Source: an uncultured Methanosarcinales archaeon
GTDB lineage: Archaea > Nanobdellota > Nanobdellia > Woesearchaeales > UBA11576
Assembly: GCA_964572875.1 (NCBI GenBank)
Contig: CAZNGE010000001.1
Location: forward strand, 24,834 to 88,833
Direction of reading: 5' to 3'
Length of the DNA: 64,000 nt
The position numbers were made by a program, and so were the translations under genes. The notes below the pieces were generated by a model. The model was not told the origin of the DNA, ran no database searches, and saw only the letters and a list, made by a program, of their open reading frames with translations. This document shows positions 7,791 to 33,804 of the stretch, in pieces. Numbering within the stretch: position 1 is the stretch's first letter; each line of letters opens with the position of its first letter.

Positions 7791-7805
7791 AAATCTCCTA
7801 CAGTG

Positions 7806-15436: not shown

Positions 15437-15437
15437 A

Positions 15438-15674
15438 TCAGGCATCATCCACACCCTTATCCTCATTCTCAAAGACTGTCTCCCACGCCTTGAGGCTCTT
15501 CAATGCCTCTTCATCAGGTATCTTCTGCACGATGATCTGCGCAGACACGAACACGTAGTCCCCGACAGCATACTCCCCATCCATGATCCTCGCAATCCTC
15601 GTCTGCCCAGGATACTCGACAGTAGCATCATCCCCTTCTATCTTCACTATCTTCCCAGGCATCGCCAAGCACAT
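15438..15674 (-). CDS. hypC: Hydrogenase assembly chaperone HypC/HupF
   Basis: MCLAMPGKIVKI N-terminus (MCLAIP signature), 78 aa. Confidence 0.85.
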   Translation of the reverse strand: MCLAMPGKIVKIEGDDATVEYPGQTRIARIMDGEYAVGDYVFVSAQIIVQKIPDEEALKSLKAWETVFENEDKGVDDA

Positions 15675-15808: not shown

Positions 15809-16237
15809 ATGCTCCACATCCTGGCATTCGGCAATCCGTACCTAAAAGAGGACAGTCTCGCAGTCAGGGTAGCTGACCTTATCATAGAGGACAAAGTGCC
15901 CGGCATTGAGATAGTGAAATGCATCTCTCCTGACGAGCTGCTGAACTACTTTGACAAGGATTTCGTGATACTCGATGTTGTCAAGGACGCGGATGATGTC
16001 ATGATTATTGATGACATAGAAAGGCTGCAGTCAGGAAAGATAGTATCGCTCCACGACTTTGACCTCGGATTCTTCCTGAAGCTGATGAAGGAGACAGGTA
16101 GGATGGAGAAGATAATGATAATAGGCATCCCTCAGCAGGGCGACATAAAAGAGATTAAAGAGAAAGTCAAGAAAAAGATTCTGGGCCTGCTGGACAGCCT
16201 CAATCCTCCTGCCAGTCCAGCTGCAGGAAATGCGTAG
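15809..16237 (+). CDS. Hydrogenase maturation endopeptidase (HycI/FrhD family)
   Basis: ILAFGNPYLKEDSLAVRVADLI and SLHDFDLG motifs, about 140 aa, adjacent to the second hydrogenase. Confidence 0.75.
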   Translation: MLHILAFGNPYLKEDSLAVRVADLIIEDKVPGIEIVKCISPDELLNYFDKDFVILDVVKDADDVMIIDDIERLQSGKIVSLHDFDLGFFLKLMKETGRMEKIMIIGIPQQGDIKEIKEKVKKKILGLLDSLNPPASPAAGNA

Positions 16238-17489
16238 AGCAGGAAATGCAGGGGTCGTAAGCTCTTATCAGCTTCTCTATGTCGAGCTTTATCTCTTCCT
16301 GGCCCTTGTCAAGTATCGAGGGAAGGAATGCCTTTATCGACTCTTCTACATGCTGAAGGCTCTGCGTGGTCGGGGTGGTTATGTCCGCGAACGTGCAGTA
16401 CCCCTCATCATCGAACTTGTAATGGTGGAATAGTATTCCCCTCGGTGCCTCGCAAGCGCCGATCCCTTCGCATGAGCATGGCTTGACATCGAACTCGACA
16501 GGCTTCTCCGATTTCAGCTCGAGGTTGGAGAGTATAATGATGGACCTGTTTATGCCTTCCAGGATCTCGATTGCCTGCGCGATTATGTTCATGAAAGGAT
16601 TGGACTTATTCTCGCAGACCTGCCTCGCGTACTGCTTGGCCTCATTCGACAGGAACTCGAAATTGTTGCAGAGCCGCGCCAGCGCTCCGACGAGATAGCT
16701 CTTTCCCTCCTGTGTCGCAAACTCCGCGGTGCTTCCTTCGCGCAGGTATTCCTTGAAGTGCTGCTTGTAGTCCTTTGTCGGGAAGCATGTTCCCCTCTCG
16801 CACCGCACGATCCTGTCTGAGTAGAAATACGTGCCTCCTGACAGCGCGAACTTGGGCGCGTCATTCTCGAACTCCGGATACGAGAGCCCTGAGAAGAGCT
16901 TGACCGTCTCTACAGCGTCGACCTTGCACTGCTTGAGCTCCTCGACGAGCGCATCAATCATGGTCTTGTCAGGTATCCGTGAGAACCCGCCGATGACACA
17001 GCCGATAGGATGGACGTCCCTGCCTGCGAGCGTGAATACTATATGGTTGCCGAGCCTCTTGAGCCGCAGCGCCCTCTCGACGAGCGCTTTGTGCTTCTTC
17101 GCCAGGCCTATCGCGCTCCCGACGCCGGAATAGTCCGGCAGGGTTAGGAAGTAGAGGTGCAGAGCATGGCTCTGTATTATGCCCCCTATGTTGAGGACTT
17201 CGCGAAGCTTACGGGTCTGCTCAGATACCTTGATGCCGAACGCGTCCTCTATCGCCTTTATCGAAGTTATGGCATGGACCACGGAGCATATCCCGCATAT
17301 TCTCGACGATATATGGCTCAGGTCATTGAACTTCTTGCCCTTGAGTATGCCTTCGAAGAACCTCGCGCCCTCGAGCACGTTGAGCTTGGCCTCTTCCACC
17401 TTGCCGCCGGATATCTTCACGTGCAGCTTCGCATGACCCTCTATCTTGGTTATATGGTCGAGCTCAAGCTTTCTTGGCATCTTTTTCAC
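16200..17489 (-). CDS. Second [NiFe] hydrogenase large subunit, group 3 (paralog of hydA)
   Basis: RICGICS and DPCISCSTH motifs. 429 aa. Readily alignable to 6510..7790. Confidence 0.9.
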   Translation of the reverse strand: MKKMPRKLELDHITKIEGHAKLHVKISGGKVEEAKLNVLEGARFFEGILKGKKFNDLSHISSRICGICSVVHAITSIKAIEDAFGIKVSEQTRKLREVLNIGGIIQSHALHLYFLTLPDYSGVGSAIGLAKKHKALVERALRLKRLGNHIVFTLAGRDVHPIGCVIGGFSRIPDKTMIDALVEELKQCKVDAVETVKLFSGLSYPEFENDAPKFALSGGTYFYSDRIVRCERGTCFPTKDYKQHFKEYLREGSTAEFATQEGKSYLVGALARLCNNFEFLSNEAKQYARQVCENKSNPFMNIIAQAIEILEGINRSIIILSNLELKSEKPVEFDVKPCSCEGIGACEAPRGILFHHYKFDDEGYCTFADITTPTTQSLQHVEESIKAFLPSILDKGQEEIKLDIEKLIRAYDPCISCSTHFLQLDWQED

Positions 17490-18273
17490 CTTTTGATTTC
17501 AGAATGGCATCCTTTACCTTCTGCTCGCCGAACTTACTCAGCTTGTTCATGACATCCTTCTCATCGAGGCCCCAGCTCTTGAACAACGCGACTTCTGCAG
17601 GGAAGTTTGCGGTGTCGAGCGGCCCCCTGCACATTATGCAGGGTATGTTCTGCTTAATGCATACCGCGTCGCAGCCTCCGCGCGTGAGCGCTCCCATGCA
17701 CACTGTCTTCTCGCGCAGGAAGCAGTCCTTTCCCCTGCGCGGGCATTGGTTGCATACAGGGCCCTTGAACTCCTCGAACTTCTTCCCTTCGAGATAGCCG
17801 TTGATGAAGTCCATGAACTCCTTCTTGAGTATCGGGCAGCCATGGAGATAATGGTCCACCTTGACGAATCGGTCTATGGGCTGCGCCTCTATTGAGTCCG
17901 AGAGCATCTGCTGGTTATAGATATACTTGCCCAGCTCCTTGCTCTCTATGAAGTTGCGCATCGCAGGAATCCCCCCGTAGCATGCGCAGGCCCCGAGTGC
18001 GACAACAAGCCGGGATTTCTTTCTTATCTGCTTGAGCTTGCTGACTTCCCTCTTCGTGGTTATCGCACCTTCGACAAAAGCGATGTCGAACTCAGCTTCC
18101 TTGTTCTTCTCCTTTATGAGATTGAAATACTTTATATCGAGCTTCTCCAGAAGCCTGCTGAGATCATCAAGAAAGAGCACTGTGAACCCGCACCCCTCGC
18201 AGCACGTGAAGCAGAAAAATCCGACTATGGGCTTTGCATGCTTTGGGCCTGAAGCAGGAGATTTTTTTGGCAT
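17464..18273 (-). CDS. Second [NiFe] hydrogenase small subunit, group 3
   Basis: FFCFTCCEGCG and GACACYGGIP cluster motifs. 269 aa. Overlaps the large subunit start. Confidence 0.85.
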   Translation of the reverse strand: MPKKSPASGPKHAKPIVGFFCFTCCEGCGFTVLFLDDLSRLLEKLDIKYFNLIKEKNKEAEFDIAFVEGAITTKREVSKLKQIRKKSRLVVALGACACYGGIPAMRNFIESKELGKYIYNQQMLSDSIEAQPIDRFVKVDHYLHGCPILKKEFMDFINGYLEGKKFEEFKGPVCNQCPRRGKDCFLREKTVCMGALTRGGCDAVCIKQNIPCIMCRGPLDTANFPAEVALFKSWGLDEKDVMNKLSKFGEQKVKDAILKSKGEKDAKKA

Positions 18274-18572: not shown

Positions 18573-19808
18573 ATGAGAGTGTTGATGTTCGGTTGGGAGT
18601 TCCCCCCCTTCAAGAGCGGCGGTCTAGGTACGGCCTGCTATGACCTAACCAAGGGTCTCTCGAACCAGGGCGTAAACGTCACCTTTGTCATGCCTGTCGC
18701 TCCTGAAGGAGCCAATGCGCAGTTCGTCAAGCTCGTGGGTGCCAACAACTTCTCAAAAAATGTCAAACTCCGCAAAATAAGCTCTGTTCTCACACCATAC
18801 CAATCATTCAGCTCGTATTCCGAAGCGCTCAGCAAAGTCAGGGCATCATCGAATTACACGACCTCTAAGGATAAGGTATATGGCAATAATCTCTATGAAG
18901 AAGTATACCGTTACTCCATCGCTGCTGCTGACATAGCTGAGGAAGAGGAGTTCGATGTTATCCATGTCCATGACTGGATGACCTACAGGGCAGGCATAAA
19001 CGCCAAGGCCGCTTCTGGCAAGCCATTGGTCGCACATATCCATGCGACAGAGTTCGACCGCACAGGAGGCAATCCCAACCAGATAATAAGCCACATGGAA
19101 TATCAGGGCCTCAGGGCTGCGGATGTAGTGATAGCCAACTCGAATTTCACCAAGCAGAACGTAATCAAGCATTACAGCATCGATCCGGATAAGATAAAGG
19201 TCGTTCACTGGGGAATCGATCCCGAGAACCCATATTATGGGATCAATCATAAGTCTCCTTTCGATGATGAAAAGATCGTACTTTTCCTCGGCAGGATAAC
19301 CATACAGAAAGGTCCTGATTACTTTGTTGAGGCAGCCAACAATGTGCTGAAGTATGTGCCGAATACCAAGTTTGTGGTCGCTGGCTCCGGAGACATGTTC
19401 GAGCGCATGATCAACAGGGCAGACGAGCTGGGGATACTCAACAACTTCATATTCACAGGATTCCTCAAGGGCGCTGACGTCCACAAGGCATTCCAGATGG
19501 CAGACCTTTATGTGATGCCTTCAGTTTCCGAGCCTTTCGGCCTCGTCGCGCTCGAATCGCTAAAGAACGGCACGCCGATACTGATATCAAAGCAGTCAGG
19601 GGTCAGCGAGGTCGTGAATCACGCCCTGAAGGTCGATTTCTGGGATGTGGCTGAGATGACCAACAAGATAGTCAATGTGCTGAAGTATCCTGAACTGCAT
19701 TCAGAGCTAAAGGAAAACAGCTTCAGGGAAGTACAGGGCTTCAACCTTGACGAACCGGCCAGGAAGACCAGGGAGATCTACGAGCAGGCTATAATTATCA
19801 AGAGGTAA
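18573..19808 (+). CDS. GT-B retaining glycosyltransferase (GT4/GT5-like; archaeal glycogen/alpha-glucan synthase-like)
   Basis: MRVLMFGWEFPPFKSGGLG N-terminus and C-terminal EPFGLVALESL motif of GT4/GT5 synthases. Adjacent to GH57. Confidence 0.75.
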   Translation: MRVLMFGWEFPPFKSGGLGTACYDLTKGLSNQGVNVTFVMPVAPEGANAQFVKLVGANNFSKNVKLRKISSVLTPYQSFSSYSEALSKVRASSNYTTSKDKVYGNNLYEEVYRYSIAAADIAEEEEFDVIHVHDWMTYRAGINAKAASGKPLVAHIHATEFDRTGGNPNQIISHMEYQGLRAADVVIANSNFTKQNVIKHYSIDPDKIKVVHWGIDPENPYYGINHKSPFDDEKIVLFLGRITIQKGPDYFVEAANNVLKYVPNTKFVVAGSGDMFERMINRADELGILNNFIFTGFLKGADVHKAFQMADLYVMPSVSEPFGLVALESLKNGTPILISKQSGVSEVVNHALKVDFWDVAEMTNKIVNVLKYPELHSELKENSFREVQGFNLDEPARKTREIYEQAIIIKR

Positions 19809-19816
19809 TCGAAAAA

Positions 19817-21064
19817 ATGGTGAGCGTGTGTTTTTATTTCCAGGTGCATCAGCCTTTCAGGATGAGGCGTTACCCTATCTTTGATATAGGGAAGAAGCGG
19901 AACTATTTTGACGACGAGAAGAACATAGAGGTGCTCAGGAAGGTCGCGAGGAAGTGCTACCTCCCTGCGAACAGCCTCATGCTGGATCTTCTTGAGAGGC
20001 ATCCCGGGTTCAGGATATCCTATTCTTTGTCAGGTGTTTTTATTGAGCAGTGCGAGAAGTGGGCTCCCGAAGTGCTGGAGAGCTTCAGGAAGCTTGTGGA
20101 TACTGGACGTGTCGAGATTCTATCTGAGACTTACTACCACTCTCTCGCATACCTTTTTTCTAAGGATGAGTTCAAGGAGCAGGTGCTTTTGCACAGGAAG
20201 AAGATTGAGGAGGTGTTCGGCGTCACGCCAAGAGTCTTCAGGAACACAGAGCTGATATACAACAATGAGATCGCGAACTACATCGAAGGAATGGGCTTCA
20301 AGGGAATCATAGCCGAGGGTTGGGACCCTATCCTGGGCTGGAAGAGCGCGAACTTCGTTTACAGGCCAAAGACGACCAGGAATATCAGGCTCCTGCTCAA
20401 GAACTACCGCCTGTCTGATGACATAGCGTTCCGCTTCTCGAACAGGGGATGGGCGGAATGGCCCCTGACGACAGATAAGTTCTGCCAGTGGGTGAACAGA
20501 TACAACGGCAGCGGCGAGTGCATCAACCTGTTCATGGACTACGAGACGATAGGGGAGCACCAGTGGGAGGACACAGGCATATTCGATTTCCTGCGACACC
20601 TGCCAGGCGAGCTGCTGAAGCACCCTGACAACAGCTTCAAGACACCGTCAGAGCTGATAGACACGCACGAGGCAAAAGACGAGATAGACTGCCACCACAT
20701 GATATCCTGGGCAGACATAGAGCGCGACCTGTCGGCATGGCTCGGCAACAGGATCCAGCAGTCATCCGCGAACAGGCTCTACTCATTGGAGAAGGACATA
20801 AAAAATTCAGGAGATCAGCAGCTGCTGGACGACTGGCGCAAATTACAGACATCAGATCATTTCTACTACATGTGCACCAAATGGTTCAATGATGGCGACG
20901 TGCATAAGTACTTCAACCCTTATGACTCGCCATACGACTCTTTCATGAATTTCATGAACGTGATGAATGACATAGTGATACGGCTGAAATCAGGGACTAA
21001 GACGGCATCAGGTGAGGCTGCTGCTGGCGAGGTGAAGGGCGATGACATGGGCAAGGCATTATAA
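19817..21064 (+). CDS. Glycoside hydrolase family 57 protein (alpha-amylase/branching-enzyme family)
   Basis: FYFQVHQPFR region-I motif of GH57 and overall GH57-like N-terminal domain. 415 aa. Confidence 0.72.
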   Translation: MVSVCFYFQVHQPFRMRRYPIFDIGKKRNYFDDEKNIEVLRKVARKCYLPANSLMLDLLERHPGFRISYSLSGVFIEQCEKWAPEVLESFRKLVDTGRVEILSETYYHSLAYLFSKDEFKEQVLLHRKKIEEVFGVTPRVFRNTELIYNNEIANYIEGMGFKGIIAEGWDPILGWKSANFVYRPKTTRNIRLLLKNYRLSDDIAFRFSNRGWAEWPLTTDKFCQWVNRYNGSGECINLFMDYETIGEHQWEDTGIFDFLRHLPGELLKHPDNSFKTPSELIDTHEAKDEIDCHHMISWADIERDLSAWLGNRIQQSSANRLYSLEKDIKNSGDQQLLDDWRKLQTSDHFYYMCTKWFNDGDVHKYFNPYDSPYDSFMNFMNVMNDIVIRLKSGTKTASGEAAAGEVKGDDMGKAL

Positions 21065-21119
21065 GAAGAGGAAATCAGCCGCAAGGCCTATCGTGAAAAG
21101 GATGGAACGGAGGGAGGCC

Positions 21120-21437
21120 ATGATGAAGAAGAGTGCAAAAAACAAAGAGGAGAGCGCTAAGCGCGTATCATCTAAGAAGGAGGAGATATCCCCTGAGAAA
21201 TATTTCATACTCAAGGACGGGACCCATATCAAGAGCATAAAGGAGCTTGCCATGATGATGGACAGCATGAGCGATGACAGCTTCAGCTTCCACGTCAATG
21301 AGGAGAAGAATGATTTCGCCAACTGGATAAGGGACGTGTTCGGCAAAGAGGATCTTGCTGACTCATTGCTTGCGCTGAAGTGCAGGAAGGAGAACCAGAT
21401 AGCGCTGCTCAAGCATGCGCTGCACGACAGGATATAG
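21120..21437 (+). CDS. Hypothetical basic protein sharing a novel approximately 65-aa domain with the next gene (paralog A)
   Basis: Strong SD GGAGGGAGG before ATG 21120. Domain YFILKDGTHIKSIKEL...FHVNEEKNDFANWIRDV is shared with 21493..22356. Confidence 0.5.
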   Translation: MMKKSAKNKEESAKRVSSKKEEISPEKYFILKDGTHIKSIKELAMMMDSMSDDSFSFHVNEEKNDFANWIRDVFGKEDLADSLLALKCRKENQIALLKHALHDRI

Positions 21438-21492
21438 GATCAATAATATCAGTGATGATATGGAAAAGATAGAGGCAAACAAGGTGCTATAG

Positions 21493-22356
21493 ATGGACGA
21501 CAAGATGACGCTTATGGACGTGGAGAACCTGCTCAAGGATGTGCATCCTGAAAGGGCTTTCGTGCTCAAGGACGGATCCTCGATAAAGAACCTGCAGGAG
21601 CTGTACTCAGTCTTGCAGGGTATGGAGTCGCACGTATTTGAACATCACGTGAATGAGGAGAGGAACGACTTCGGCAACTGGGTGAAGGACGTGCACAAGG
21701 ACTACAGGCTCGCGAACAGCCTGTTCTCTGCAGGCACTAAAGACGAAGCAGTGAAGGCTATAGGCAGCAGGATATACGAGATAGAGAAGAAGATCAGGCC
21801 TGAGAAGAAGGTTGTTCCCGCGTTGCGGCAGAAGCAGCACAGCATGGTGGTTGTCGCACCTCAGAAAGCCGGGCCTGCGCCTGTGAAAGCTGTGGACCTG
21901 CCGGCCAAGGAGGAGAATCCTGTGCTCGAGGACGCAGGAGAACTCGAGAAGAAGGTCATCGTCGAGGCAAAGATAGAGAAGAAGATTGAGAGCAAGTCAG
22001 CAGCCATCAGCGAGGAAGGCGTGTCGAGGAGACTGCCTGACAAGGATGACCCTTGTGAAGAGCTGATAAAGTTCGCAGAGGAGAAAGGATTCGCAGGCAG
22101 GCTTATAGGCGAAGTGACCAGCGTATTCACGCGCCCCGACATCAGGGGTTTCGCCAGTGATATGAAGAAGGTGTTCGCATCGGGAAGCGAAGCTGATGAC
22201 AGCGTCATGGCAGATGGTGCGGATCAGGAAGATGATGATGAAAGCAGCGGGCCGGAACTGTCTGGCGCAGCCGCAGTCAAAGCGATCAAGGCATCTCAGG
22301 GCGATGATGACAAGAAAGATGAGATCTTGTCCTATCTGAAGAAGGTGTACAGATGA
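21493..22356 (+). CDS. Hypothetical protein, paralog B: conserved N-terminal domain plus long acidic predicted-disordered tail, coupled to the MinD-like ATPase
   Basis: AFVLKDGSSIKNLQEL...HHVNEERNDFGNWVKDV domain. Roughly 180 aa D/E-rich tail. Stop overlaps the MinD start (ATGA). Confidence 0.55.
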   Translation: MDDKMTLMDVENLLKDVHPERAFVLKDGSSIKNLQELYSVLQGMESHVFEHHVNEERNDFGNWVKDVHKDYRLANSLFSAGTKDEAVKAIGSRIYEIEKKIRPEKKVVPALRQKQHSMVVVAPQKAGPAPVKAVDLPAKEENPVLEDAGELEKKVIVEAKIEKKIESKSAAISEEGVSRRLPDKDDPCEELIKFAEEKGFAGRLIGEVTSVFTRPDIRGFASDMKKVFASGSEADDSVMADGADQEDDDESSGPELSGAAAVKAIKASQGDDDKKDEILSYLKKVYR

Positions 22357-23138
22357 GCGGCGCAAGAAAGGATTGCAGGGTCATAGGCGTCATCTCCATA
22401 AAGGGTGGAGTGGGCAAGACTACAGTTGTGTCTAATCTCGGCGCAGTGCTTGCCGGCCAGTTCGGCAAGAAGGTGCTGCTCGTGGACGGAAACATGACAG
22501 CGCCCAACCTGGGACTGCACCTGGGGGTCCTGGATTCAGACAAGACCCTGCACGACGTGATATATGACCACGCACCCATAAACGATGCGGTGCTGACATC
22601 AAGCTATGGATTCGATGTCCTGCCGAGCGCATTGGCTCCGAGGAAGAGCCAGCAGAAGCGCATAAACCCGTACAAGCTGCACAACAGGCTCCTGCGAATA
22701 AGGGGTGATTATGATTTCATAGTGATTGACTCGTCGCCGAACCTTAATGATGAGATGCTGTCCGCGATGATAGCCTCAGACGAGCTGGTGGTCGTGACGA
22801 GCCCTGACTACCCGACGCTGAGCTGCACCATGCACGCCATCAAGGTGGCCAAGGAGAGGAAGACACCTATCAAAGGCCTGGTGCTGAACAAGGTGCGGAA
22901 CAGGAGTTTTGAGCTTTCAGTCAAGGACATAGAGGCTGCGACAGGGGTGCCCGTGCTCTCGGTCATAGATGACGACGTGAAGGTGCTGGAAGCGCTCTCG
23001 AAGACGACTCCTGCCTCGCTTGCTGCGCCGAAGAAGGACTTTTCGGTCGCGTACTGCTCTCTCGCAGCGAAGCTTGCAGGCGAGGAATACAGGGACCCGC
23101 GATTCATGTCGAGAGTGGCGTCCATCTTCAGAAGATAG
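22353..23138 (+). CDS. MinD/ParA-family P-loop ATPase (deviant Walker A)
   Basis: GVISIKGGVGKTTVVSNLG (KGGxGKT) motif. 261 aa. Confidence 0.85.
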   Translation: MSGARKDCRVIGVISIKGGVGKTTVVSNLGAVLAGQFGKKVLLVDGNMTAPNLGLHLGVLDSDKTLHDVIYDHAPINDAVLTSSYGFDVLPSALAPRKSQQKRINPYKLHNRLLRIRGDYDFIVIDSSPNLNDEMLSAMIASDELVVVTSPDYPTLSCTMHAIKVAKERKTPIKGLVLNKVRNRSFELSVKDIEAATGVPVLSVIDDDVKVLEALSKTTPASLAAPKKDFSVAYCSLAAKLAGEEYRDPRFMSRVASIFRR

Positions 23139-23200
23139 GATATCATAGGATCATAGTCTCAACTCAGAAAGAAAAGTACTCATCTGTATCCGTTGGGGGA

Positions 23201-25042
23201 ATGATTTTGGAAGAAAAAAGAGGTGAACATAGAGAACCTAAGGCAGATTTCCTGTTCGAGGTATCCTGGGAAGTATGCAACAAGGTCGGCGGCATAAACA
23301 CGGTCATAAAGAGCAAGATACCGCAGACAGTCAGCAGGTACGGGGACAAGTACTGCCTTGTAGGGCCCTATTTCCATGACAAGGTCAAGGGCGAGTTCGA
23401 GGAGCTCGTGCTGCCCGAAGAGTACAGGGAAGGCAGCGAGGCGCTGAAGGGCATAGGCATAGTGCCCCACTACGGCAAGTGGCTCACAGAAGGGTCTCCC
23501 AACACTCTGCTTCTTGATTTCCAGCCGTTCTTTGAGAGGAAAGATGAGGTGAAGAAGAAGCTGTGGGACATGTACAAGATAGATTCGCTCAACTCCTCGA
23601 ACGAGTTCGACGAGCCCGCCGTGTGGGGCTGGGCCGTCGGGATAATAATCGAGAGTTTCTTCAATAGGTACAACGCGGAATGGAAGATTGCCACCGTGTT
23701 CCACGAGTGGCTTTCAGGCGCAGGGATACTCTACCTGAAATCCCAGAAGTGCAGGATAGCAACTATATTCATAACGCACGCCACTGTCATGGGCAGGTGC
23801 CTGGCGAATGCAGGAGTGGACCTGTACCAGCGTGACGGAGAGGACAAGCTCCTGCTCGATAGGATGGATTTCGATAAGGAGGCGTATGACCGCCACATGC
23901 AATCGAAGCACCAGCTCGAGAAAGCCAGCGCAAACGCCACGGATGTCTTCGCGACGGTCTCGGAGATAACCGGGATGGAGGCAGAGCACGTGCTGAGGAA
24001 GAAGCCGGACCTGCTTGTGCCGAACGGCCTCAACCTTGACGATTTCCCGACGGTAGAGGAGAACTCAATCAAGCACAGGATATTCAGGGACAAGATATAC
24101 CATTTCCTGCTCTATTATTTCTTCCCTTACTACCACCTCGACATAGACAACACGCTGATCTACTTCATAGCGAGCAGGTACGAGATGAGGGACAAGGGCA
24201 TTGACATATTCATAAAGGCCTTGAGCAGGCTCAACCAGAAGCTCAAGGAGGAAAGGTCCAAGAAGAGCATCGTTACGTTCTTCTGGGTGCCTTCAGGAGT
24301 GAGAGGCGTCAAGCAGGAGATCGTAGAGAACAAGACCATGTTCAAGGATGTCGAGGACAGCCTGAAGGACAATTCAGAGCATGTCATGTGGCGCCTGCTG
24401 AGCACTTTCGTCGGCGACAAGCCGATAATAAAGGAGACCATATTCGACAAGGCGTTCCTGGCAGACATAAAGAAGAAAGTGATGAAGTTCAAGAGGGAAG
24501 AGACCGCACCTCCGATATGCACCCATGATCTCATAGACCATAATGATGAGATAACGCGCAGCCTCTCTGAGGAAGGCCTCCTGAACTCGAGAGAGGACAA
24601 GGTAAAGGTGATATTCTATCCGATATACCTGACAGGCGCTGACGGGCTTCTCGACCTGACATACTATGAGGCAATACAGGGCGCGCATCTCGGCGTGTTC
24701 CCCTCATTCTACGAGCCTTGGGGATACACCCCTCTGGAGGCAGGAGCGCTCGGGGTCGCATCGATAACGACAGACCTTGCGGGATTCGGGAAATACATTG
24801 AAGGGAAGACTGACGAGAAGTGTCTTGGCATCTGCGTCCTGAAGAGGCTGGGCAGGCCGGACGCGGAAGTGATAGACGCGCTGTATGACAGGTTATACAC
24901 GTACGCAGAGATGCCGAAGAAGAATCGTGTCGACAACAAGCTTGAGGCCAGGAAAATGGCCAGCCTTGCGGACTGGGACAGCCTGATACTGAATTACTTC
25001 AACGCTGAGGATATGGCTATAGACAGGGTATTCAGCGGATGA
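23201..25042 (+). CDS. Glycogen synthase, eukaryote-type (GT3 family)
   Basis: FLFEVSWEVCNKVGGINTVIKSK N-terminus (the LFEVAWEVANKVGGIYTV signature of GT3 glycogen synthases). 613 aa. Confidence 0.85.
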   Translation: MILEEKRGEHREPKADFLFEVSWEVCNKVGGINTVIKSKIPQTVSRYGDKYCLVGPYFHDKVKGEFEELVLPEEYREGSEALKGIGIVPHYGKWLTEGSPNTLLLDFQPFFERKDEVKKKLWDMYKIDSLNSSNEFDEPAVWGWAVGIIIESFFNRYNAEWKIATVFHEWLSGAGILYLKSQKCRIATIFITHATVMGRCLANAGVDLYQRDGEDKLLLDRMDFDKEAYDRHMQSKHQLEKASANATDVFATVSEITGMEAEHVLRKKPDLLVPNGLNLDDFPTVEENSIKHRIFRDKIYHFLLYYFFPYYHLDIDNTLIYFIASRYEMRDKGIDIFIKALSRLNQKLKEERSKKSIVTFFWVPSGVRGVKQEIVENKTMFKDVEDSLKDNSEHVMWRLLSTFVGDKPIIKETIFDKAFLADIKKKVMKFKREETAPPICTHDLIDHNDEITRSLSEEGLLNSREDKVKVIFYPIYLTGADGLLDLTYYEAIQGAHLGVFPSFYEPWGYTPLEAGALGVASITTDLAGFGKYIEGKTDEKCLGICVLKRLGRPDAEVIDALYDRLYTYAEMPKKNRVDNKLEARKMASLADWDSLILNYFNAEDMAIDRVFSG

Positions 25043-25070
25043 GGATATGTTTAGGTAAGGAGATGCTAAA

Positions 25071-26033
25071 ATGGAGCTGAGAAAAGATTACATCCTTGAC
25101 AGGTGGGTCATCATAGCCACCGGAAGAGGGAAGAGGCCCCACGAGTTCAAGACCGAGGATGACATATATGCTGATGATAAGGGTCCTGAGAAATGCTTCT
25201 TCTGCCCTGGCAACGAGTCCATGACCCCTCCTGAAATAGGCAGGGTGAAGGACGACAAGGGCGGATGGAAGCTGCGCTGGTTCGCGAACAAGTTCGCTGC
25301 TGTCGACAAGAGCGGCGACGCCAGTATCAAGACAGACAACAATTTCTTCACATACTCTGACGCATATGGGAACCATGAGGTCATTGTCGAGACTCCTGAC
25401 CACATGAAGCAGATGATAGACCTTAATGAAAAGGAGATAATGGACCTGCTGAAAGTATACGCACGTCGCATAGACGTGCTGATAAACGAGCCTAACATTA
25501 AGTACGTGTGCGTTTTCAAGAATGAAGGTAAGAAGGCAGGCACATCAATCGTGCATTCGCACAGCCAGCTGATATCGCTCAACACTGTGCCGACAGAGGT
25601 CACAGCGAAGATAGAGGCTGCAAAAAGGTTCCCTTCATGCCCTTACTGCGACATAATCAAGACAGAGGCAAAGGGCCACCGGCATGTCCACGAGGACGAC
25701 ACGACTGTGACGTTCACGCCTTACGCTTCAAGGTTCAACTTCGAGGTCTGGATATTCCCGAAGAACCATTACAAGACCCTGAGAGACTTCTCTGATGACG
25801 AGATGTTCGACCTTGCGGCTGCTATGAAACGGGTGCTGAAAAAGCTGAAGGACCTTAACGCCAACTTCAACATGGTGATGTACTATGCGCCCAAAGGCGA
25901 GGACCTGCACTTCCATATAGAGTTCCTGCCCCGCATCGCGACATGGGCAGGGTTTGAGCTGGAGTCAGGGGTCACGATCAACGTCGTGAGCCCTGAGGAC
26001 GCGGCCCTGTTTTATAAGGGCGAGCATAAATAA
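25071..26033 (+). CDS. Galactose-1-phosphate uridylyltransferase-family (GalT/HIT) nucleotidyltransferase
   Basis: CFFCPGNE zinc site and HSHSQ (HxHxQ) active site. 320 aa. Confidence 0.8.
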   Translation: MELRKDYILDRWVIIATGRGKRPHEFKTEDDIYADDKGPEKCFFCPGNESMTPPEIGRVKDDKGGWKLRWFANKFAAVDKSGDASIKTDNNFFTYSDAYGNHEVIVETPDHMKQMIDLNEKEIMDLLKVYARRIDVLINEPNIKYVCVFKNEGKKAGTSIVHSHSQLISLNTVPTEVTAKIEAAKRFPSCPYCDIIKTEAKGHRHVHEDDTTVTFTPYASRFNFEVWIFPKNHYKTLRDFSDDEMFDLAAAMKRVLKKLKDLNANFNMVMYYAPKGEDLHFHIEFLPRIATWAGFELESGVTINVVSPEDAALFYKGEHK

Positions 26034-26071
26034 TAAAAATCCCCCACACCCAGCCAATACTGGTGATAATC

Positions 26072-27448
26072 ATGACGGTGAACGAAAAGATATTCAAAGC
26101 TTATGATATACGGGCAGTTTATCCTGATGAGATAGACGAGGATGCAGCATACATCATAGGACGGGCGTTCGTGACATTCCTTGGCTGTAAGGAAGTTGTT
26201 GTGGGCCAGGACATGCGCAGCAGCTCCCCTTCGCTTTTCGATGCCCTCGCCAGAGGGATAACTGACCAGGGAGCCGATGTCATAGACATAGGGAAGAGCA
26301 GCACCCCTTTCTTCTACTTCGGTACTGCAGGCCACGAGGCAGGTATCATGGTCACTGCTTCCCACAATCCCGCCAAGTACAACGGCTTCAAGATGTGCAG
26401 GGACGGCACAGTGCCTATCGGAGGGGACAGCGGCATGCAGGAGATAAAGGCCCTTGCGGTTGCTGGCGGGTTCAAGGATACTGAAACAAAGGGAAGCATC
26501 AGAAAGAAAGACATAACAGATGATTTCATCACGCACAACCTCAAGTTCCTGGACAGCAGCTTGTCAGGAAAGAATCTGAAGATAGTGGTCGATACCGGCA
26601 ACGGCATGGGAGGCTACACATTCCCGAAGGTATTCGAGAGGGTCGAGAACATAGAGGTTGTCCCTCTCTACTTTGACGTAGACATGACATTCCCTAACCA
26701 CGAGGCGAACCCGATAAAGCCTGAGAACGTGAAGGACCTCCAGGAAGCTGTCATCAGTAACAATGCTGACTTCGGCGCTGCGATAGACGGTGACTGCGAC
26801 AGGTGCTTCTTCGTGGATGAGAAAGGGGATGTAGTCACTGCTGACCTTATAACAGCCCTGCTCGCGAAAGAGCTTCTCAAGGACAATCCCGGAGCAAGGA
26901 TACTCTATGATCTCAGGTCAAGCTGGGCCACAAAGGAGGTCATCGAGGAGAACGGCGGAAAGCCGGGCATGTGCCGCGTCGGCCACGCGTTCATAAAGAA
27001 GCAGATGAGGGAAGAGGACGCCCTGTTCGCAGGAGAGCTATCAGGTCATCTCTATTACCGGGACTCATTCGTCACAGAGAGCTCGATAATATCCACTCTG
27101 CTTATAATCAACCTGATACGAAAAGAGGGCAAGGCATTGTCCGAGCTCGTAAAGCCGATAAAGAGGTATTTTCCCAGCGGAGAGATAAATTCAGAGGTCG
27201 GGGACAAGGAAGGCAAGATGAAGGAGCTCGAGGGGATGTTCAGGGCGGAGGCGAAGGTCACTTCGCATCTCGACGGGATAAAGCTTGAGTTCGACGATTG
27301 GTGGTTCAATGTGCGCGCCTCGAACACAGAGCCCCTGCTGAGGCTGAACCTCGAGGCCAAGACGGAAAAGAGGATGGAGGAGATGCGTGACAGGATCGTC
27401 GCGATAATCCGCAGAAAAAGAGATGAAGATATCACACAAGCTTCCTAG
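26072..27448 (+). CDS. Phosphoglucomutase/phosphomannomutase (alpha-D-phosphohexomutase)
   Basis: TASHNPAKYNGFK phosphoserine loop, GDCDR and GELSGH motifs. ATG 26072 with GGTGAT RBS. Track start 26063 is GTG. Confidence 0.88.
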   Translation: MTVNEKIFKAYDIRAVYPDEIDEDAAYIIGRAFVTFLGCKEVVVGQDMRSSSPSLFDALARGITDQGADVIDIGKSSTPFFYFGTAGHEAGIMVTASHNPAKYNGFKMCRDGTVPIGGDSGMQEIKALAVAGGFKDTETKGSIRKKDITDDFITHNLKFLDSSLSGKNLKIVVDTGNGMGGYTFPKVFERVENIEVVPLYFDVDMTFPNHEANPIKPENVKDLQEAVISNNADFGAAIDGDCDRCFFVDEKGDVVTADLITALLAKELLKDNPGARILYDLRSSWATKEVIEENGGKPGMCRVGHAFIKKQMREEDALFAGELSGHLYYRDSFVTESSIISTLLIINLIRKEGKALSELVKPIKRYFPSGEINSEVGDKEGKMKELEGMFRAEAKVTSHLDGIKLEFDDWWFNVRASNTEPLLRLNLEAKTEKRMEEMRDRIVAIIRRKRDEDITQAS

Positions 27449-29252
27449 ACTGGGCATAAGCAGGGACGGCTGCGACGCGGATGTCTGCGTCCTTGCGAAT
27501 AATCTGGGCAGTTTCCTTTTCTTATCTCCTTCATCGATATCCAAGTTCAACGGTTTCTTCACGAACTACGGGCTTAAGCTGTACAAGACGGTGCAGAACA
27601 TAGGTCTTCTCGACCAGGCGCCTGTCGAGATGGAGAACAGCCTGACGGCGATAAGCAGGAGGTATCCTGGAAACTCTGAAAGGATAGTATGCCCTGACAG
27701 CATACAGGGCTTGATATACACCTTGTCCAAGAAAGGGAGCATATTCATGGACTTCGACTTCCGCAAGATGGATGACATGAGGTCGTTCGGGAGGATATAT
27801 GAGGTAACGCAGGAAGACGGCAGGATACTGGTCGAATTCACCAAGATGACCGACGAGAGGGAGGACAGCACAGACGGGGTCGCTGAGTTCAGCTTCTTTG
27901 CGGCGATACAGCCTAAGGGGTTCAGCCCACAGACAGACTATAAGTTCATAGACTATTGGCTTGAGAGCGATTACAGGTATGACAGGGAGAGGAAAGACCC
28001 TCCTGACAGGAGATATGTCTACAGGCCTTTCATGATAAAGGCGAAGCAGCTCCTGATCGGCGTCGGCAAGACAAAGGCGGATGCGATTGCAGAGCTCGAT
28101 AAACTGAAGAAGTTCAAGGCAGGAAAGAAGGATTATAAGACGATAGACAAGAAGAAGGATGCTGAGGCCGCTGCCGCTTTCATCTGCGCCCAGGAGTCGC
28201 TTGAGAAGATGAAGTCAGAGGACATCGACGGCACGACGAGGCTGTACGCAGGCTATCCCTGGTTCTTCCAGTTCTGGTCAAGGGATGAGAACGTTTCCCT
28301 TGGCGCGCTCATGAAGCTGAAGCAGTTCAGGACAGTGAAGGGCATACTTTTCAAGTACCTTAAGAACATCGGCAAGGACGGCAGGCTCGCCAACCGCGTG
28401 CCATCGTCGCATCTCGGCTCTGCAGACGGTGTGGGGTGGTTCTGGAAACGTATCGGAGATTTCATCGCAGCACTCAAGGAGCTGCACCTGCGCGAGAAAT
28501 ACCTGTCGCCCAAGGAGATGAAGGACATAAGGGACTCTCTGGCGGACTCGATAAGAAAGATAGAGAAGAACTACAAGTCAGGCGGTCTCATAACGAACAA
28601 GGACAATGAGACCTGGATGGACACCGACCCTGGCGGCCAGGACCCGCGCGACGGGAAGAGGATCGAGGTGCAGGCCCTGCATCTCAACATGCTCAGGCTG
28701 ATGCATGAGCTCAGCGGCGACATGAGATACAAGACAAAGGAGACGAAGATGAGGAAGGAAGTGATAAAGGGCTTCTGGAACGGGAAGCTGATAGCTGACG
28801 GTGTGGATGATTATACTATAAGGCCGAATATTTTCATAGCGTATTACGTTTATCCTGACCTGCTCCCGAGGAGAGAGTGGCAGACATGCTTTGAGAACGC
28901 ACTGAAGAAGATCTGGCTGGACTGGGGTGGCCTTTCATCCATAGACAAGGGCAATCCCCTCTTCACGCCGGAATATACAGGAATGGATGACAGGAGCTAT
29001 CACCGCGGGGACTCATGGTACTGGATAAACAACCTTGCTGCGATATGCATGTTCAGGAACAATGCTATTGAGTTTGAAGGAAGGATAAAACAGATAATCA
29101 AGGCAAGCTCTGAGGAGATACTCTGGCACGGCGCGATAGGGGACCATGCAGAGATAAGCTCTGCCTCGCATCTTTCGTCGAAAGGGTGCTTTGCGCAGGC
29201 ATGGAGCGCTGCCATTTTCATTGAGCTGATGATGGAGACGATGGGAGGATGA
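27423..29252 (+). CDS. Glycogen debranching enzyme / amylo-alpha-1,6-glucosidase family (GDE C-terminal (alpha/alpha)6 domain)
   Basis: GYPWFFQFWSRDENVSLGAL (the GYPWF..GRDT-type motif of this family) and C-terminal GDSWYWINNL. 5' end overlaps pgm by 26 nt, so the true start is uncertain. Confidence 0.72.
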   Translation: MKISHKLPRLGISRDGCDADVCVLANNLGSFLFLSPSSISKFNGFFTNYGLKLYKTVQNIGLLDQAPVEMENSLTAISRRYPGNSERIVCPDSIQGLIYTLSKKGSIFMDFDFRKMDDMRSFGRIYEVTQEDGRILVEFTKMTDEREDSTDGVAEFSFFAAIQPKGFSPQTDYKFIDYWLESDYRYDRERKDPPDRRYVYRPFMIKAKQLLIGVGKTKADAIAELDKLKKFKAGKKDYKTIDKKKDAEAAAAFICAQESLEKMKSEDIDGTTRLYAGYPWFFQFWSRDENVSLGALMKLKQFRTVKGILFKYLKNIGKDGRLANRVPSSHLGSADGVGWFWKRIGDFIAALKELHLREKYLSPKEMKDIRDSLADSIRKIEKNYKSGGLITNKDNETWMDTDPGGQDPRDGKRIEVQALHLNMLRLMHELSGDMRYKTKETKMRKEVIKGFWNGKLIADGVDDYTIRPNIFIAYYVYPDLLPRREWQTCFENALKKIWLDWGGLSSIDKGNPLFTPEYTGMDDRSYHRGDSWYWINNLAAICMFRNNAIEFEGRIKQIIKASSEEILWHGAIGDHAEISSASHLSSKGCFAQAWSAAIFIELMMETMGG

Positions 29253-30145
29253 AACAGGACGATAACATGGAATACGCGATAGCTTTGGATGTCGGGGGAA
29301 GCAAGATGACCACCTGCCTCGTGGACGAGACAGGGAAGATAATCGACGGTGAGCGCCGGCTGACCGATGCCCCTGAAGGCAGGAGGAAGGTGCTGTTAAA
29401 CATAATATCAGAGATAAAGAAGATGATGGACAAGCACAAGGACATCAGCGTGAAAGGGATAGGCATAGGCATGCCAGGATTCATAGACAGCAAAGGGAAA
29501 GTGGTGTTCATGCCCAATGTTCCGCTTGTCGGGTTCAACATAGTGAATAAGCTCAATAAGAGGTTCAAGTGCCCCGTTGCTGTAGAAAATGACGCGAACT
29601 GCTTTGCGCTCGGTGAATACTCTTTCGGCAGGCACAAGTCAAAGGTCCTGCTCGGCCTCATAGTAGGCACAGGCGTGGGCTGCGGGATAGTATCAAACGG
29701 AAAGCTGATATCAGGTTGCGGAGGCGGCGCAGGGGAGATAGGCCACAACCTGCTTGACAATTCCACAGATAAGCTTGTTGTCAAGAAGAATGATTTCGAG
29801 TCTGTGTGCTCAGGCCCTAACATCAGCAGGCGGTACTCTGAAGCAGGAGGAAAAGACACTATCCCGAAACAGGTATTCGCGGCAAAGGATCATGCAGCTA
29901 GGAAGGTGATAGATGATGAGTACAACTGTCTGGGCAAGTTGTTGGGATCCATGGTCAATACACTGAACCCGGACACCATAGTCCTGGGAGGCAGCGTGAG
30001 CAAGTCGCTGAAACCAGGACGGCTAAGGAAGGAGATCGTGAAATACTCCATACCTTTCTCTGCAAAGCTGGTCAAGGTCAAGCAGAGCAGGCTTGATGAC
30101 ATAGCCGGTGTGCTTGGCGCTGCAGCCTTGATATTCGAGCAGTAG
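29249..30145 (+). CDS. ROK-family sugar kinase (glucokinase-like)
   Basis: ALDVGGSKMT N-terminal ATP motif and GxGxGxG plus CxCGxxGC ROK zinc motif (CSGPN..). Start 29249 or 29267. Confidence 0.8.
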   Translation: MKQDDNMEYAIALDVGGSKMTTCLVDETGKIIDGERRLTDAPEGRRKVLLNIISEIKKMMDKHKDISVKGIGIGMPGFIDSKGKVVFMPNVPLVGFNIVNKLNKRFKCPVAVENDANCFALGEYSFGRHKSKVLLGLIVGTGVGCGIVSNGKLISGCGGGAGEIGHNLLDNSTDKLVVKKNDFESVCSGPNISRRYSEAGGKDTIPKQVFAAKDHAARKVIDDEYNCLGKLLGSMVNTLNPDTIVLGGSVSKSLKPGRLRKEIVKYSIPFSAKLVKVKQSRLDDIAGVLGAAALIFEQ

Positions 30146-30295
30146 GGAGGCTCTAGAGCCATGATTCTGCAGTCTCATCTGCCAGGATTACCCATCCCCA
30201 GACCTTCTGTTACCACTTAACAGAGACAACAAAACGAAACATTTATATATTAGTTCTGAACCTTATATCATTAGTTGGTTGGAGGTGGCTGAGAG

Positions 30296-30928
30296 ATGTA
30301 CTTACCTGACAAGATAGAGAAAAGCATTTCTAGGCTGGAGAGGCTTGCTGATAAAGGCGGGTTTGATGACGATCTATATCTGAGTACAGCTGAGCAATGC
30401 AGCTACATTGATGGAGATGAGACAAAGAGGATGTACACTAGGATGCTCGACCTTCTTGTCGCGCTTTCAAGCTCTGTCAGGCTCGGATTTCATGATACTG
30501 CTGAAGGCATAAGGCTGCTTTACAATGCAGAGTGCGGCGGCAAGTTCAAGATAGACACCGATAGGGCGTTCTCAATCCTTGAAGAGGCGGCATTCACAGG
30601 AAAGTGGAGTGGAAGCCTGCAGGAGTGCATCACCAAGACCCTGAATCTGGATGACCATGCCAAGATGGATTACAGGACCAGGCGAAACAGGGACAGGATG
30701 CATGACCTGACAACAGCATATTCGCTGCTCCTCGCTTCAAAGGATGACAGCTCCCTGAACGCCAGGGCGCTGGTCGCGATGAGGGTGTATGTCGACAGCA
30801 ACCCCTCATCCAAGGATTTCCTTCCTGACGACCTGCGGGCAAGGGTGTTCCCTGAAGAGTTCATGAAGGCAAATGAAGGCAAACGACAGACAGAAAATAG
30901 TCTGAACAAAGATAGAGGTGCGCAATAA
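30296..30928 (+). CDS. Hypothetical protein
   Basis: GGAGGTG RBS. 210 aa. No recognisable motifs. Stop overlaps the start of the next gene. Confidence 0.45.
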   Translation: MYLPDKIEKSISRLERLADKGGFDDDLYLSTAEQCSYIDGDETKRMYTRMLDLLVALSSSVRLGFHDTAEGIRLLYNAECGGKFKIDTDRAFSILEEAAFTGKWSGSLQECITKTLNLDDHAKMDYRTRRNRDRMHDLTTAYSLLLASKDDSSLNARALVAMRVYVDSNPSSKDFLPDDLRARVFPEEFMKANEGKRQTENSLNKDRGAQ

Positions 30929-31935
30929 TGATCCAGAAATCAATACACATACTCACGCAGCTCCAGCATCCGAAAGGCCTGTTCGTGGCTGCGCTTGACA
31001 AGAGCACGCACTACTCAAGGCAGGCATGGATCCGCGACAACATCTACGCGAGCCTCGGCTTCGAGGCGGTTAAGAGGCATAAGGAGGTCGTGAAGGCATA
31101 CCAGGCATTGCTTGACGTGCTGAAGAAGCACGAGTACAAGATAGACTGGGCGATCGTCGAGAAGCCGCAGCATCGCTGGCAGTACATCCACGCACGGTTC
31201 GACCCTGAGACATTCGATGAGTTCCAGGAGGACTGGGGCAACAAGCAGAACGACGCCATCGGAGCTTTGCTCTTCAAGATAGGCGACCTCGAGTCCAAAG
31301 GCATAAGGGTCATACGTGACAAGGATGACGAGCGCATAATCCAGAAGCTCGTATATTATCTTAACTCAATACAATATTGGCATGACAAGGACAGCGGCAT
31401 GTGGGAGGAGAACGAGGAAGTGCATGCTTCCTCTGTCGGAGCATGCGTAGCTGGCCTCAAGAAGATATCCAAGATAGTTGATGTTCCTCAAGTTCTCATA
31501 CAGAAAGGTGAGGAAACCTTGAACCAACTCTTGCCAAGGGAATCTGACAGCAAAGACACAGACCTTGCGCTTCTGTCGCTGATCTACCCGTACAACGTGG
31601 TTTCAGATGAGCAGAGGATGCAGATACTCCAGGATGTTGAGAGAAAGCTTGTCAGGCAGCGCGGAGTGATCCGTTACGCAGCCGACTTCTATTTTAACAG
31701 GAATGGAGAAGCAGAATGGACATTCGGATTCCCTTGGCTTGCAATCATCTACAAGCAGCTGAACAGACCTGACAAGGCAGCGTTCTACATGCGCAAGACC
31801 CTTGAGGTCGTCAACAAAGCAGGCGAGCTCCCTGAGCTCTACTACGCCAACACCGACGAGCACAACGAGAACACTCCGTTGGGATGGGGCCAGAGCCTGA
31901 TGGTTGTGGCGATGACCAAGAACCAGACAGCGTAA
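30928..31935 (+). CDS. GH15-like (glucoamylase/glucodextranase family) glycoside hydrolase catalytic domain
   Basis: QAWIRDNIYA (the W-x-R-D motif), GMWEENEEVH (the LWEE general-acid region), GWGQSL. Roughly 335 aa (alpha/alpha)6-like. Confidence 0.6.
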   Translation: MIQKSIHILTQLQHPKGLFVAALDKSTHYSRQAWIRDNIYASLGFEAVKRHKEVVKAYQALLDVLKKHEYKIDWAIVEKPQHRWQYIHARFDPETFDEFQEDWGNKQNDAIGALLFKIGDLESKGIRVIRDKDDERIIQKLVYYLNSIQYWHDKDSGMWEENEEVHASSVGACVAGLKKISKIVDVPQVLIQKGEETLNQLLPRESDSKDTDLALLSLIYPYNVVSDEQRMQILQDVERKLVRQRGVIRYAADFYFNRNGEAEWTFGFPWLAIIYKQLNRPDKAAFYMRKTLEVVNKAGELPELYYANTDEHNENTPLGWGQSLMVVAMTKNQTA

Positions 31936-33772: not shown

Positions 33773-33804
33773 AACCAGAAGACACACGAACTAAAGGTGA
33801 AAAG

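Follow-up and report, generated by a model that had tools for sequence, protein, structure and literature searches.

The closest described relative of the two small proteins considered here is OrfY of Thermoproteus tenax (PDB 4CSO), a chain of 216-221 aa that holds two modules and has no tail, basic extension or ATPase partner. The other systems that come near are ATPases of ParA/MinD type (the A/D family) that have a dedicated partner protein. The locus lies in a stretch of 64,000 nucleotides of the archaeal contig CAZNGE010000001.1 (positions 24,834 to 88,833; 'the window' below means this whole stretch). Inside a glycogen island, two adjacent genes encode paralogous proteins, A and B, and a third encodes a MinD-type ATPase, C (Table 1). 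In contrast to OrfY, A and B are single-module proteins made from separate genes.

Among the A/D ATPases, MinD (that of bacterial MinCDE, of Pyrococcus, and MinD4 of Haloferax) is like C in its deviant Walker A motif, its sequence and, by prediction, its amphipathic C-terminal helix. C differs from it by an Asn in place of the catalytic Asp, by a score below the cutoff of the archaeal MinD model, by its location in a glycogen operon, and by a partner of DUF5752 type. MinD-like genes were limited to Euryarchaeota in the dataset of the MinD4 study (10.1101/2020.04.03.021790), whereas C comes from a DPANN archaeon. McdA/McdB and ParA-like cargo systems also combine an A/D ATPase and a partner that is small, charged and in part disordered, encoded beside presumed cargo genes, and at our locus, too, a dedicated partner gene adjoins that of the ATPase. 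McdAB-type ATPases, however, use the nucleoid and partner-stimulated hydrolysis to form gradients, whereas C has what appears to be a membrane-type helix and an impaired catalytic site; B, for its part, has a folded module and carries its candidate contact peptide at the C-terminus.

Two further comparisons concern polysaccharide synthesis and regulation. BcsQ, which acts with BcsR and BcsE, is a MinD/ParA-family ATPase within a glucan-synthesis operon, as is C, and is thought to localise or assemble the synthase rather than to oscillate (PMC11407121). It serves a membrane-embedded bacterial machine for beta-glucan secretion, whereas C belongs with cytoplasmic alpha-glucan storage in an archaeon, and the partners are unrelated. 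In FleN/FlhG-FleQ, the ATP-bound dimer of a MinD-family ATPase binds a regulatory protein, and FleN is among the solved relatives of C; the module of A and B differs in being acidic and often membrane-anchored. In eukaryotes, glycogenin has a C-terminal peptide that binds the synthase, and Stbd1 is a membrane tether. By analogy, these glycogen-targeting proteins may have a common logic with B, that is, a variable linker between a folded head and a conserved short peptide at the end, with membrane tethering of glycogen metabolism; the island has a eukaryote-type GT3 synthase, but there is no relationship in sequence or fold. The pairing of B with C follows the general logic of an A/D ATPase plus adaptor. 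It differs from the known pairs in its storage-glucan context, and probably also in a loss of hydrolysis and in an origin as the replacement of a tail anchor.

The first-pass annotation of this DNA, made from the letters alone, had placed three consecutive plus-strand genes between a GH57 gene and a GT3 glycogen synthase gene, and this arrangement holds. It had described the first of them as a basic protein of 105 aa and the domain common to A and B as about 65 aa long and not assignable to any family. A small basic protein is indeed encoded there, but the form that starts at 21120 is probably truncated. The true A is probably 131 aa long, from the in-frame ATG at 21042, as the extra basic segment (KWxRHYKK...RMxRRE) is conserved at the protein level in related loci. 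Alternative starts lie at 21102, 21120 and 21123; a Shine-Dalgarno-like sequence precedes 21120 as well as 21042, so that the later start retains some likelihood. In the longer form, a basic N-terminal extension (residues 1-47, 21042-21182, isoelectric point 11.1) is followed by a single half-module (residues 48-131, 21183-21434, isoelectric point 5.5).

A and B are paralogues, with 43% identity over 70 aa (E = 8e-20). The common domain stands, at about 85 aa, but it is not novel: A scores above the Pfam cutoff for DUF5752 (PF19027), and B, at 15.9 bits against a cutoff of 23, is linked to the family by its homology to A. A profile of the module matches OrfY twice (residues 53-88 and 167-191), and the module has the OrfY fold; in a Foldseek search with the full model of B, 4CSO ranked first of 350,542 chains. 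Single modules of different homologues align to one or the other half of the 208-position Pfam model, A covering positions 55-96, for instance, and an OrfY-type protein positions 2-207. The double match in OrfY and the mapping of single modules to either half indicate that DUF5752/OrfY is a tandem duplication of the A/B module. With one module each, A and B are half-size relatives rather than members with the full architecture. The type-specific hidden Markov models all matched both modules of OrfY and so gave no one-to-one assignment of the A or B type to its N- or C-module. No well-characterised unrelated family was matched by the domain. An exhaustive profile search gave at least 5,023 cluster representatives, many of them with two or three tandem modules; these, together with the tandem modules of OrfY, suggest that A and B pair. 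The invariant residues of the module (F, G, L, F, H, D, F, W, V, with a near-invariant N) would suit a ligand surface and a protein surface alike. Our literature search on DUF5752/OrfY returned nothing relevant and no mention of DUF5752.

The genomic surroundings of the module were then compared. On contigs from hot-spring metagenomes, an OrfY-type gene encodes a protein of 221 aa that spans the whole DUF5752 model (213 bits). This gene shares 13 nt with the start of the one for TreT, the trehalose synthase that depends on nucleoside diphosphate-glucose (NDP-glucose; 195 bits). On three Thermoproteales-like contigs (L095, 3668-9186; L096; L097), MSC-GT4-TPSP genes lie on one strand and OrfY-TreT-HAD phosphatase genes on the other. 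The msc-gt-tpsp trehalose operon has been described in T. tenax (PMC3634074), and it is this operon that stands beside OrfY-TreT in the metagenome contigs.

For the relatives of B, one genome per species was scanned with B-type sequences, which gave 338 module-encoding stretches. The counts that follow cover the best 80 of these 338 loci; as the queries were B-type sequences only, the 80 are biased towards relatives of B, and many of the contigs are truncated. All 80 are from Woesearchaeota/Nanoarchaeia. Two to four module genes lie side by side in 64 of them, and GT5 and GH57 genes are found upstream of the module genes in most. GH57 is the most consistently linked gene: of the 66 loci whose sequence reaches 2 kb or more upstream, 52 have it within 3 kb, usually with GT5. 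The modules of Woesearchaeota are placed 3' of GT5-GH57 and 5' of GT3, adjacent to genes for GT-B glucosyltransferases. By contrast, only 11 of the 80 loci encode a MinD-like ATPase; if those with too little downstream sequence are set aside, 10 of 63 do. The first-pass annotation had paired the module with the ATPase. The primary association of the module, robust and far wider, is instead with clusters of alpha-glucosyltransferase and GH57 genes (TreT in Thermoproteales), and the ATPase is a lineage-restricted addition to them.

The module is also encountered outside sugar clusters. It forms the C-terminus of proteins of 378-414 aa that are encoded beside a single-module gene of 91-97 aa and genes for surface proteins of 2,700 aa (L008-L012; P0024, P0026), and in fusion proteins it is joined to KaiC-like ATPases or to ATPases of HerA/FtsK-like type that have CarboxypepD_reg repeats (P0164, P0170, P0177, P0184, P0185). 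These contexts and fusions suggest that it behaves as a portable interaction or sensor module, often a partner of P-loop ATPases.

Four types of module protein could be distinguished: type 1, the paralogue with the widest distribution, which has a basic N-terminal extension, ends in ...QIAxLKH/RRLVKELM and includes A; type 2, of about 99 aa; a long type with a hydrophobic, tail-anchor-like C-terminal segment; and the B type. In a neighbour-joining tree A groups with type 1, of which a Lys/Arg-rich N-terminal extension (10-19 such residues per 30-60) is a general trait, and the module of B groups among the tail-anchored paralogues.

Where the ATPase is present, it is tightly linked to a module gene. 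Every strong MinD-like match in about 1 Mb of loci lies directly 3' of one, and the two genes overlap or abut in all 11 loci, with a junction of -4 nt in eight loci, -11 nt in one and +1 nt in the remaining two. The module protein encoded just 5' of the ATPase ends in [ILVM][ILVM]x[HYQE]LK[KR]V[YF] or a close variant in 10 of these loci; this ending was found in none of the 69 loci without ATPase. The tail-anchored paralogue has the opposite distribution, being present in 28 of these 69 loci and in none of the 11. In Fisher tests without correction for phylogeny, the association of peptide and ATPase has P = 6.7e-12, and the mutual exclusion of tail anchor and ATPase has P = 0.007. The adjacency of domain and ATPase, on which the first-pass annotation had built its proposal, is therefore conserved, and the fusions of the module to P-loop ATPases elsewhere are in keeping with it. 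GT3 lies directly 3' of the ATPase in 10 of the 11 loci (the exception being L084), and in several loci without ATPase it directly follows the tail-anchored paralogue. In five loci (L035, L046, L076, L085 and L087), a tail-anchored gene occupies the slot of B plus C, between type 1 and GT3. That sister lineages have a tail-anchored paralogue in this slot argues for membrane tethering rather than for the distribution of a cargo.

B combines its half-module with a long acidic tail, which had been described as probably disordered. This is true in part: in the AlphaFold 2 model, the predicted local distance difference test (pLDDT) is below 50 at residues 135-184 and 231-259. The alignment of the B family, however, shows conserved islands and an invariant-style C-terminal peptide, and conserved helices are predicted at residues 186-229 and 259-286, where pLDDT is 62-70 (helices 187-229) and about 80, respectively. 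The FxxDMKKVF portion of tail island 2 is found in the divergent locus L037 as well; this island has no match in Pfam. The C-terminal peptide has a hydrophobic moment of 0.6-0.76, compared to a mean of 0.30 over the remaining tail, and is our candidate for the contact with the ATPase. Tail island 1 (21928-21978), which reads ETAAERLEKIL or IAKERLEQILI, is invariant in most B homologues (P0004-P0021) and degraded in the B of the window and its two nearest relatives (AGELEKKVIV, with loss of the Arg). A resemblance of this island (IAKERLEQILI / TAAERLEKIL) to the MinD-contact helix of MinE was considered and rejected as unsupported: a search of PDB with an island profile, at E up to 10, brought up no MinE, and no MinE match was obtained with Pfam, at the same threshold, on six B homologues.

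C is a divergent archaeal ATPase of MinD type. Its best NCBIfam model is TIGR01969 minD_arch, at 182.2 bits, below the cutoff of 201.75, and its nearest solved structures are those of Pyrococcus MinD (1ION/1G3Q, E = 5e-35), with Archaeoglobus MinD also among the closest. It had been called an orphan ATPase, and it is the only MinD/ParA-like open reading frame (ORF) in the window, which holds no further copy of the module beyond A and B. Likewise, the absence of MinC, MinE and ParB genes nearby agrees with Pfam scans that covered 30 of the longest ORFs of the window, out of 55 with at least 90 aa, and found none of these families. The reported KGGVGKTT motif and the ATG of C that overlaps the stop of B were both recovered. 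The Walker A motif is intact and includes the signature lysine (SIKGGVGKTT, residues 15-24).

The catalytic site, on the other hand, departs from that of MinD. All 12 island ATPases have D/E-x-N where the solved MinDs have D-x-D (VDGD, VDAD, IDAD), so that an Asn stands at the position of the catalytic Asp. In PDB 4V02 this residue is Ala, and in the wild-type structure 4V03 it is Asp. The D40A variant of Bacillus subtilis MinD has negligible ATPase activity and is a trapped dimer; it binds membranes about ten-fold more tightly (dissociation constant 0.74 versus 7.17 uM), is confined, clustered and static on the membrane, and no longer forms a gradient (PMC13246001). Beyond the MinD core of the Pyrococcus structures, C extends by about 20 residues, which contain RFMSRVASIFRR. 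The helix predicted there has a hydrophobic moment of 0.80 and a charge of +4, similar values being found in 11 of the 12 island ATPases, and resembles the membrane-targeting sequence of Haloferax MinD4, which is essential in that protein (bioRxiv 10.1101/2020.04.03.021790). Binding of C to the membrane is thus a prediction from sequence. From these features we infer that C is an ATP-binding, slowly or non-hydrolysing dimer resident at the membrane. Three other assignments of C were tried and rejected: BcsQ (NCBIfam TIGR03371 cellulose_yhjQ, 51.9 bits against a cutoff of 157.85); a BY-kinase (eps_fam, 47.9 bits against 108, and no Tyr cluster in the C-terminus ...RFMSRVASIFRR); and a hydrogenase-maturation ATPase (Mrp/MinD-type HypB), ruled out by synteny and by the PDB matches.

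We tentatively propose, at slightly less than even confidence, that the A/B unit and ATP-bound dimers of C form an ATP-gated, essentially static membrane tether that replaces the tail anchor of relatives. A and B would pair into an OrfY-like unit of two modules, which may be an accessory factor, scaffold or regulator, of clusters for NDP-glucose-dependent alpha-glucosyltransferases, in Thermoproteales those with TreT and in Woesearchaeota those with GT5-GH57(-GT3). Many Woesearchaeota would have one module paralogue fixed to the membrane by its C-terminal tail anchor. In the lineage of the window, the anchor slot would have been taken by B plus C, B having lost the anchor and carrying a long acidic tail with an amphipathic basic end peptide. 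Binding of ATP would dimerise C, and the impaired hydrolysis would leave a long-lived dimer attached to the membrane through its two C-terminal helices. This dimer may hold B by the C-terminal peptide and so bring the A/B unit, with a bound glycogen enzyme or glucan, to the membrane.

Several points weigh against this proposal. Eight of the eleven ATPase loci belong to one clade, for which the co-occurrence statistics make no correction, and semi-independent support comes from three divergent loci only (L037, L073 and L084, with ATPase scores of 353, 238 and 153 bits against 564 for the self-match). The tree was built on some 80 residues and is weakly resolved, and in the tail-anchored paralogues the tails are rich in Lys and have no motif in common with the tail of B. 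Among the 69 loci without ATPase, 41 also lack a tail-anchored paralogue, though many of the contigs are truncated; attachment to the membrane may then not be essential to the function of the module. The C-terminal peptide of B could itself be a membrane-binding amphipathic helix, in which case no contact with the ATPase would be needed. Finally, C has an Asn where the D40A variant has Ala, and it may retain some hydrolysis, residual or aided by a partner.

The name given to 4CSO by its depositors, 'OrfY protein, transcription factor', also speaks against a tether and leads to another explanation, which we consider unlikely. Modules of OrfY type would bind DNA, A by its basic extension; C would be an anti-activator like FleN and, depending on the ATP level, would keep B or the whole A/B unit sequestered at the membrane, and the tail-anchored paralogue would be a membrane-sequestered regulator. 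FleN, a MinD-family protein that antagonises a transcription factor, is indeed among the solved relatives of C (E = 7e-14), the extension of A has an isoelectric point of 11 that is conserved as a property, and module genes are found at the head of, or inside, operons that they might regulate. The acidic nature of the module itself fits this poorly, as do its tail-anchored forms and its contexts with giant proteins, and no match to a DNA-binding fold was found.

The first-pass annotation had favoured dynamic positioning in the manner of McdAB, in which B would stimulate the ATPase, and gradients driven by hydrolysis would space glycogen granules or synthase assemblies. In its favour, A/D ATPases position many cargos (PMC11407121). 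At this locus, the gene of such an ATPase shows translational coupling to that of a partner which is charged and in part disordered, within the operon of the presumed cargo, and the peptide of B co-occurs with it. The catalytic site speaks against it: with Asn in 12 of 12 island ATPases, and an equivalent D40A protein that is locked, static and free of gradients, a dynamic mechanism becomes a poor candidate. Furthermore, C has a helix of membrane-targeting type rather than the nucleoid-binding features of ParA, and the passive tail anchor in the sister slot cannot make gradients. The cells of DPANN archaea are, moreover, very small.

A role like that of BcsQ and BcsR appears to us equally improbable. 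Here C and B would be stable subunits that assemble with GT3 (or GT5) or control it allosterically, ATP would be a structural cofactor, and the membrane would be incidental or absent. The ATPase does belong to a polysaccharide-synthesis operon, directly 5' of the synthase gene in nearly all ATPase loci, its impaired catalytic site would fit a structural role of ATP, and BcsQ, itself an A/D ATPase, has ties to the apparatus of cellulose synthase (PMC11407121). C also matches the Pfam family CBP_BcsQ above cutoff (41.9 bits), although more weakly than the overlapping families AAA_31, CbiA and ParA of the same clan; the low cellulose_yhjQ score indicates that C and BcsQ are not orthologues. Two observations point specifically to the membrane instead, namely the amphipathic, basic C-terminus, which is conserved, and the fact that the ATPase and tail-anchored paralogues exclude each other. 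Glycogen synthases, moreover, are soluble enzymes.

That C is an ordinary archaeal MinD, or an Mrp/MinD-type ATPase of hydrogenase maturation, that merely happens to lie beside unrelated small genes is effectively refuted by the conserved coupling: archaeal MinDs are its nearest solved relatives, and NiFe hydrogenase and HypC-like genes lie just upstream, but the ATPase follows a module gene in 11 of 11 loci, including L002, where an Mrp antiporter rather than a hydrogenase is upstream, it co-occurs with the B peptide, it falls below the minD_arch cutoff with a D-x-N of its own family, and no structure of HypB type is among its PDB matches at E up to 1e-10.

Table 1. Features of the glycogen island and of proteins A, B and C (positions in the window)
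Feature	Coordinates	Strand	Evidence
GT-B glucosyltransferase, GlgA-like (GT5/GT4), first gene of the conserved unit	18573..19808	+	Pfam Glycos_transf_1 125.6 bits, Glyco_transf_5 80.2 bits
GH57 glycoside hydrolase	19817..21064	+	Pfam Glyco_hydro_57 281 bits
Protein A, probably 131 aa, type 1 paralogue	21042..21437	+	Pfam DUF5752 32.2 bits, cutoff 23
Protein B, 287 aa, one half-module (residues 16-101, 21538-21795) and long acidic tail	21493..22356	+	
B tail island 2, residues 186-229, DPCEELIKFAEEKGF...FASDMKKVFA, predicted helical	22048..22179	+	conservation in the B family
B C-terminal amphipathic basic peptide KKDEILSYLKKVYR, residues 274-287, candidate ATPase contact	22312..22353	+	
ATGA overlap of B stop and C start codons (translational coupling)	22353..22356	+	sequence
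Protein C, 261 aa, divergent archaeal MinD-type ATPase	22353..23138	+	NCBIfam minD_arch
Deviant Walker A KGGVGKTT, residues 17-24, intact	22401..22424	+	sequence, alignment
VDGN, residues 44-47, with Asn47 at the catalytic Asp position (E. coli/B. subtilis MinD D40)	22482..22493	+	alignment
C-terminal amphipathic basic helix DPRFMSRVASIFRR, residues 248-261, candidate membrane-targeting sequence	23094..23135	+	
GT3 (eukaryote-type) glycogen synthase, directly 3' of ATPase C	23201..25042	+	Pfam Glycogen_syn 505.6 bits
GalT-like hexose-1-P nucleotidyltransferase	25071-26033	+	Pfam/NCBIfam scans
Phosphoglucomutase	26063-27448	+	Pfam/NCBIfam scans
GDE_C debranching enzyme	27423-29252	+	Pfam/NCBIfam scans
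ROK kinase	29249-30145	+	Pfam/NCBIfam scans
ORF of 210 aa without family	30296-30928	+	Pfam/NCBIfam scans
GH15	30928-31935	+	Pfam/NCBIfam scans

The gene content of the window is archaeal (FttA/aCPSF1, a proteasome subunit, an archaeal-type ProRS, SRP54, NiFe hydrogenases). Near-identical or identical contigs, and every close homologue, are from metagenome-assembled genomes of Woesearchaeota/Nanoarchaeia (DPANN). Many of the surveyed contigs (L013-L092) are titled 'uncultured Methanosarcinales archaeon' (TPA), whereas their gene content and similarity are those of Woesearchaeota/Nanoarchaeia, which looks like a labelling artefact.

The glycogen island extends over 18573-31935 on the plus strand, in the order GT5/GT4, GH57, A, B, C, GT3, GalT-like, phosphoglucomutase, GDE_C, ROK and GH15, and the synteny of its second part (25071..31935) is kept in related loci. 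It encodes two distinct glycogen synthases, one GlgA-like (GT5/GT4) and one of the eukaryote-type GT3 family, a pair that was seen again in many loci of Woesearchaeota. The top NCBIfam model for the first is glgA_Coryne (124 bits, below cutoff); NCBIfam had no model for the GT3 enzyme or for GH57. At the end of the island, GH15 is flanked by four consecutive plus-strand ORFs (30296-30928, 31940-33772, 33769-34506 and 34655-35143; 210, 610, 245 and 162 aa), none of which has a Pfam match; those of 210 and 610 aa have no NCBIfam match either. Two separate pairs of NiFe hydrogenase large and small subunit genes are found on the minus strand (6510-9029 and 16200-18273). The second pair, adjoined by HypC-like genes (14993-15674, minus strand), is divergent from the glycogen island. 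The juxtaposition of hydrogenase and glycogen genes recurs in L003, L004 and L006; L002 has instead the Mrp antiporter genes upstream.

A broader version of our proposal, which we regard as doubtful, extends to the whole family. In archaea generally, modules of DUF5752/OrfY type would serve NDP-glucose alpha-glucosyltransferases (TreT, GlgA-like GT5, eukaryote-type GT3) as a subunit for regulation or targeting, comparable in function to the glycogen-targeting proteins of eukaryotes, and in one lineage of Woesearchaeota the passive tail anchor would have given way to a MinD dimer that is by nature deficient in hydrolysis and reads ATP. If this were true, glycogen synthesis would be recruited to the membrane, or released from it, by the energy state of the cell; the system would be the first of the ParA/MinD family for storage-polysaccharide metabolism, and B would be the first partner protein to be defined for a MinD of archaea.

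To our knowledge, essentially no partner proteins of archaeal MinDs have been described, and B, with its candidate contact peptide of 14 residues, is a concrete and easily tested candidate for one. Storage-glucan metabolism becomes a candidate new cargo or process for the ParA/MinD family; a 2024 review of the cargos of this family does not mention glycogen (PMC11407121). The locus may also be seen as a natural experiment in which a tail anchor was exchanged for a nucleotide-gated one, made of a peptide and a MinD with Asn at the catalytic Asp position. For DUF5752, a family of unknown function that adjoins alpha-glucosyltransferase genes in two distant archaeal lineages, the results provide a functional context that can be tested, and they bear on carbon storage in the DPANN archaea, an uncultivated and poorly understood group.

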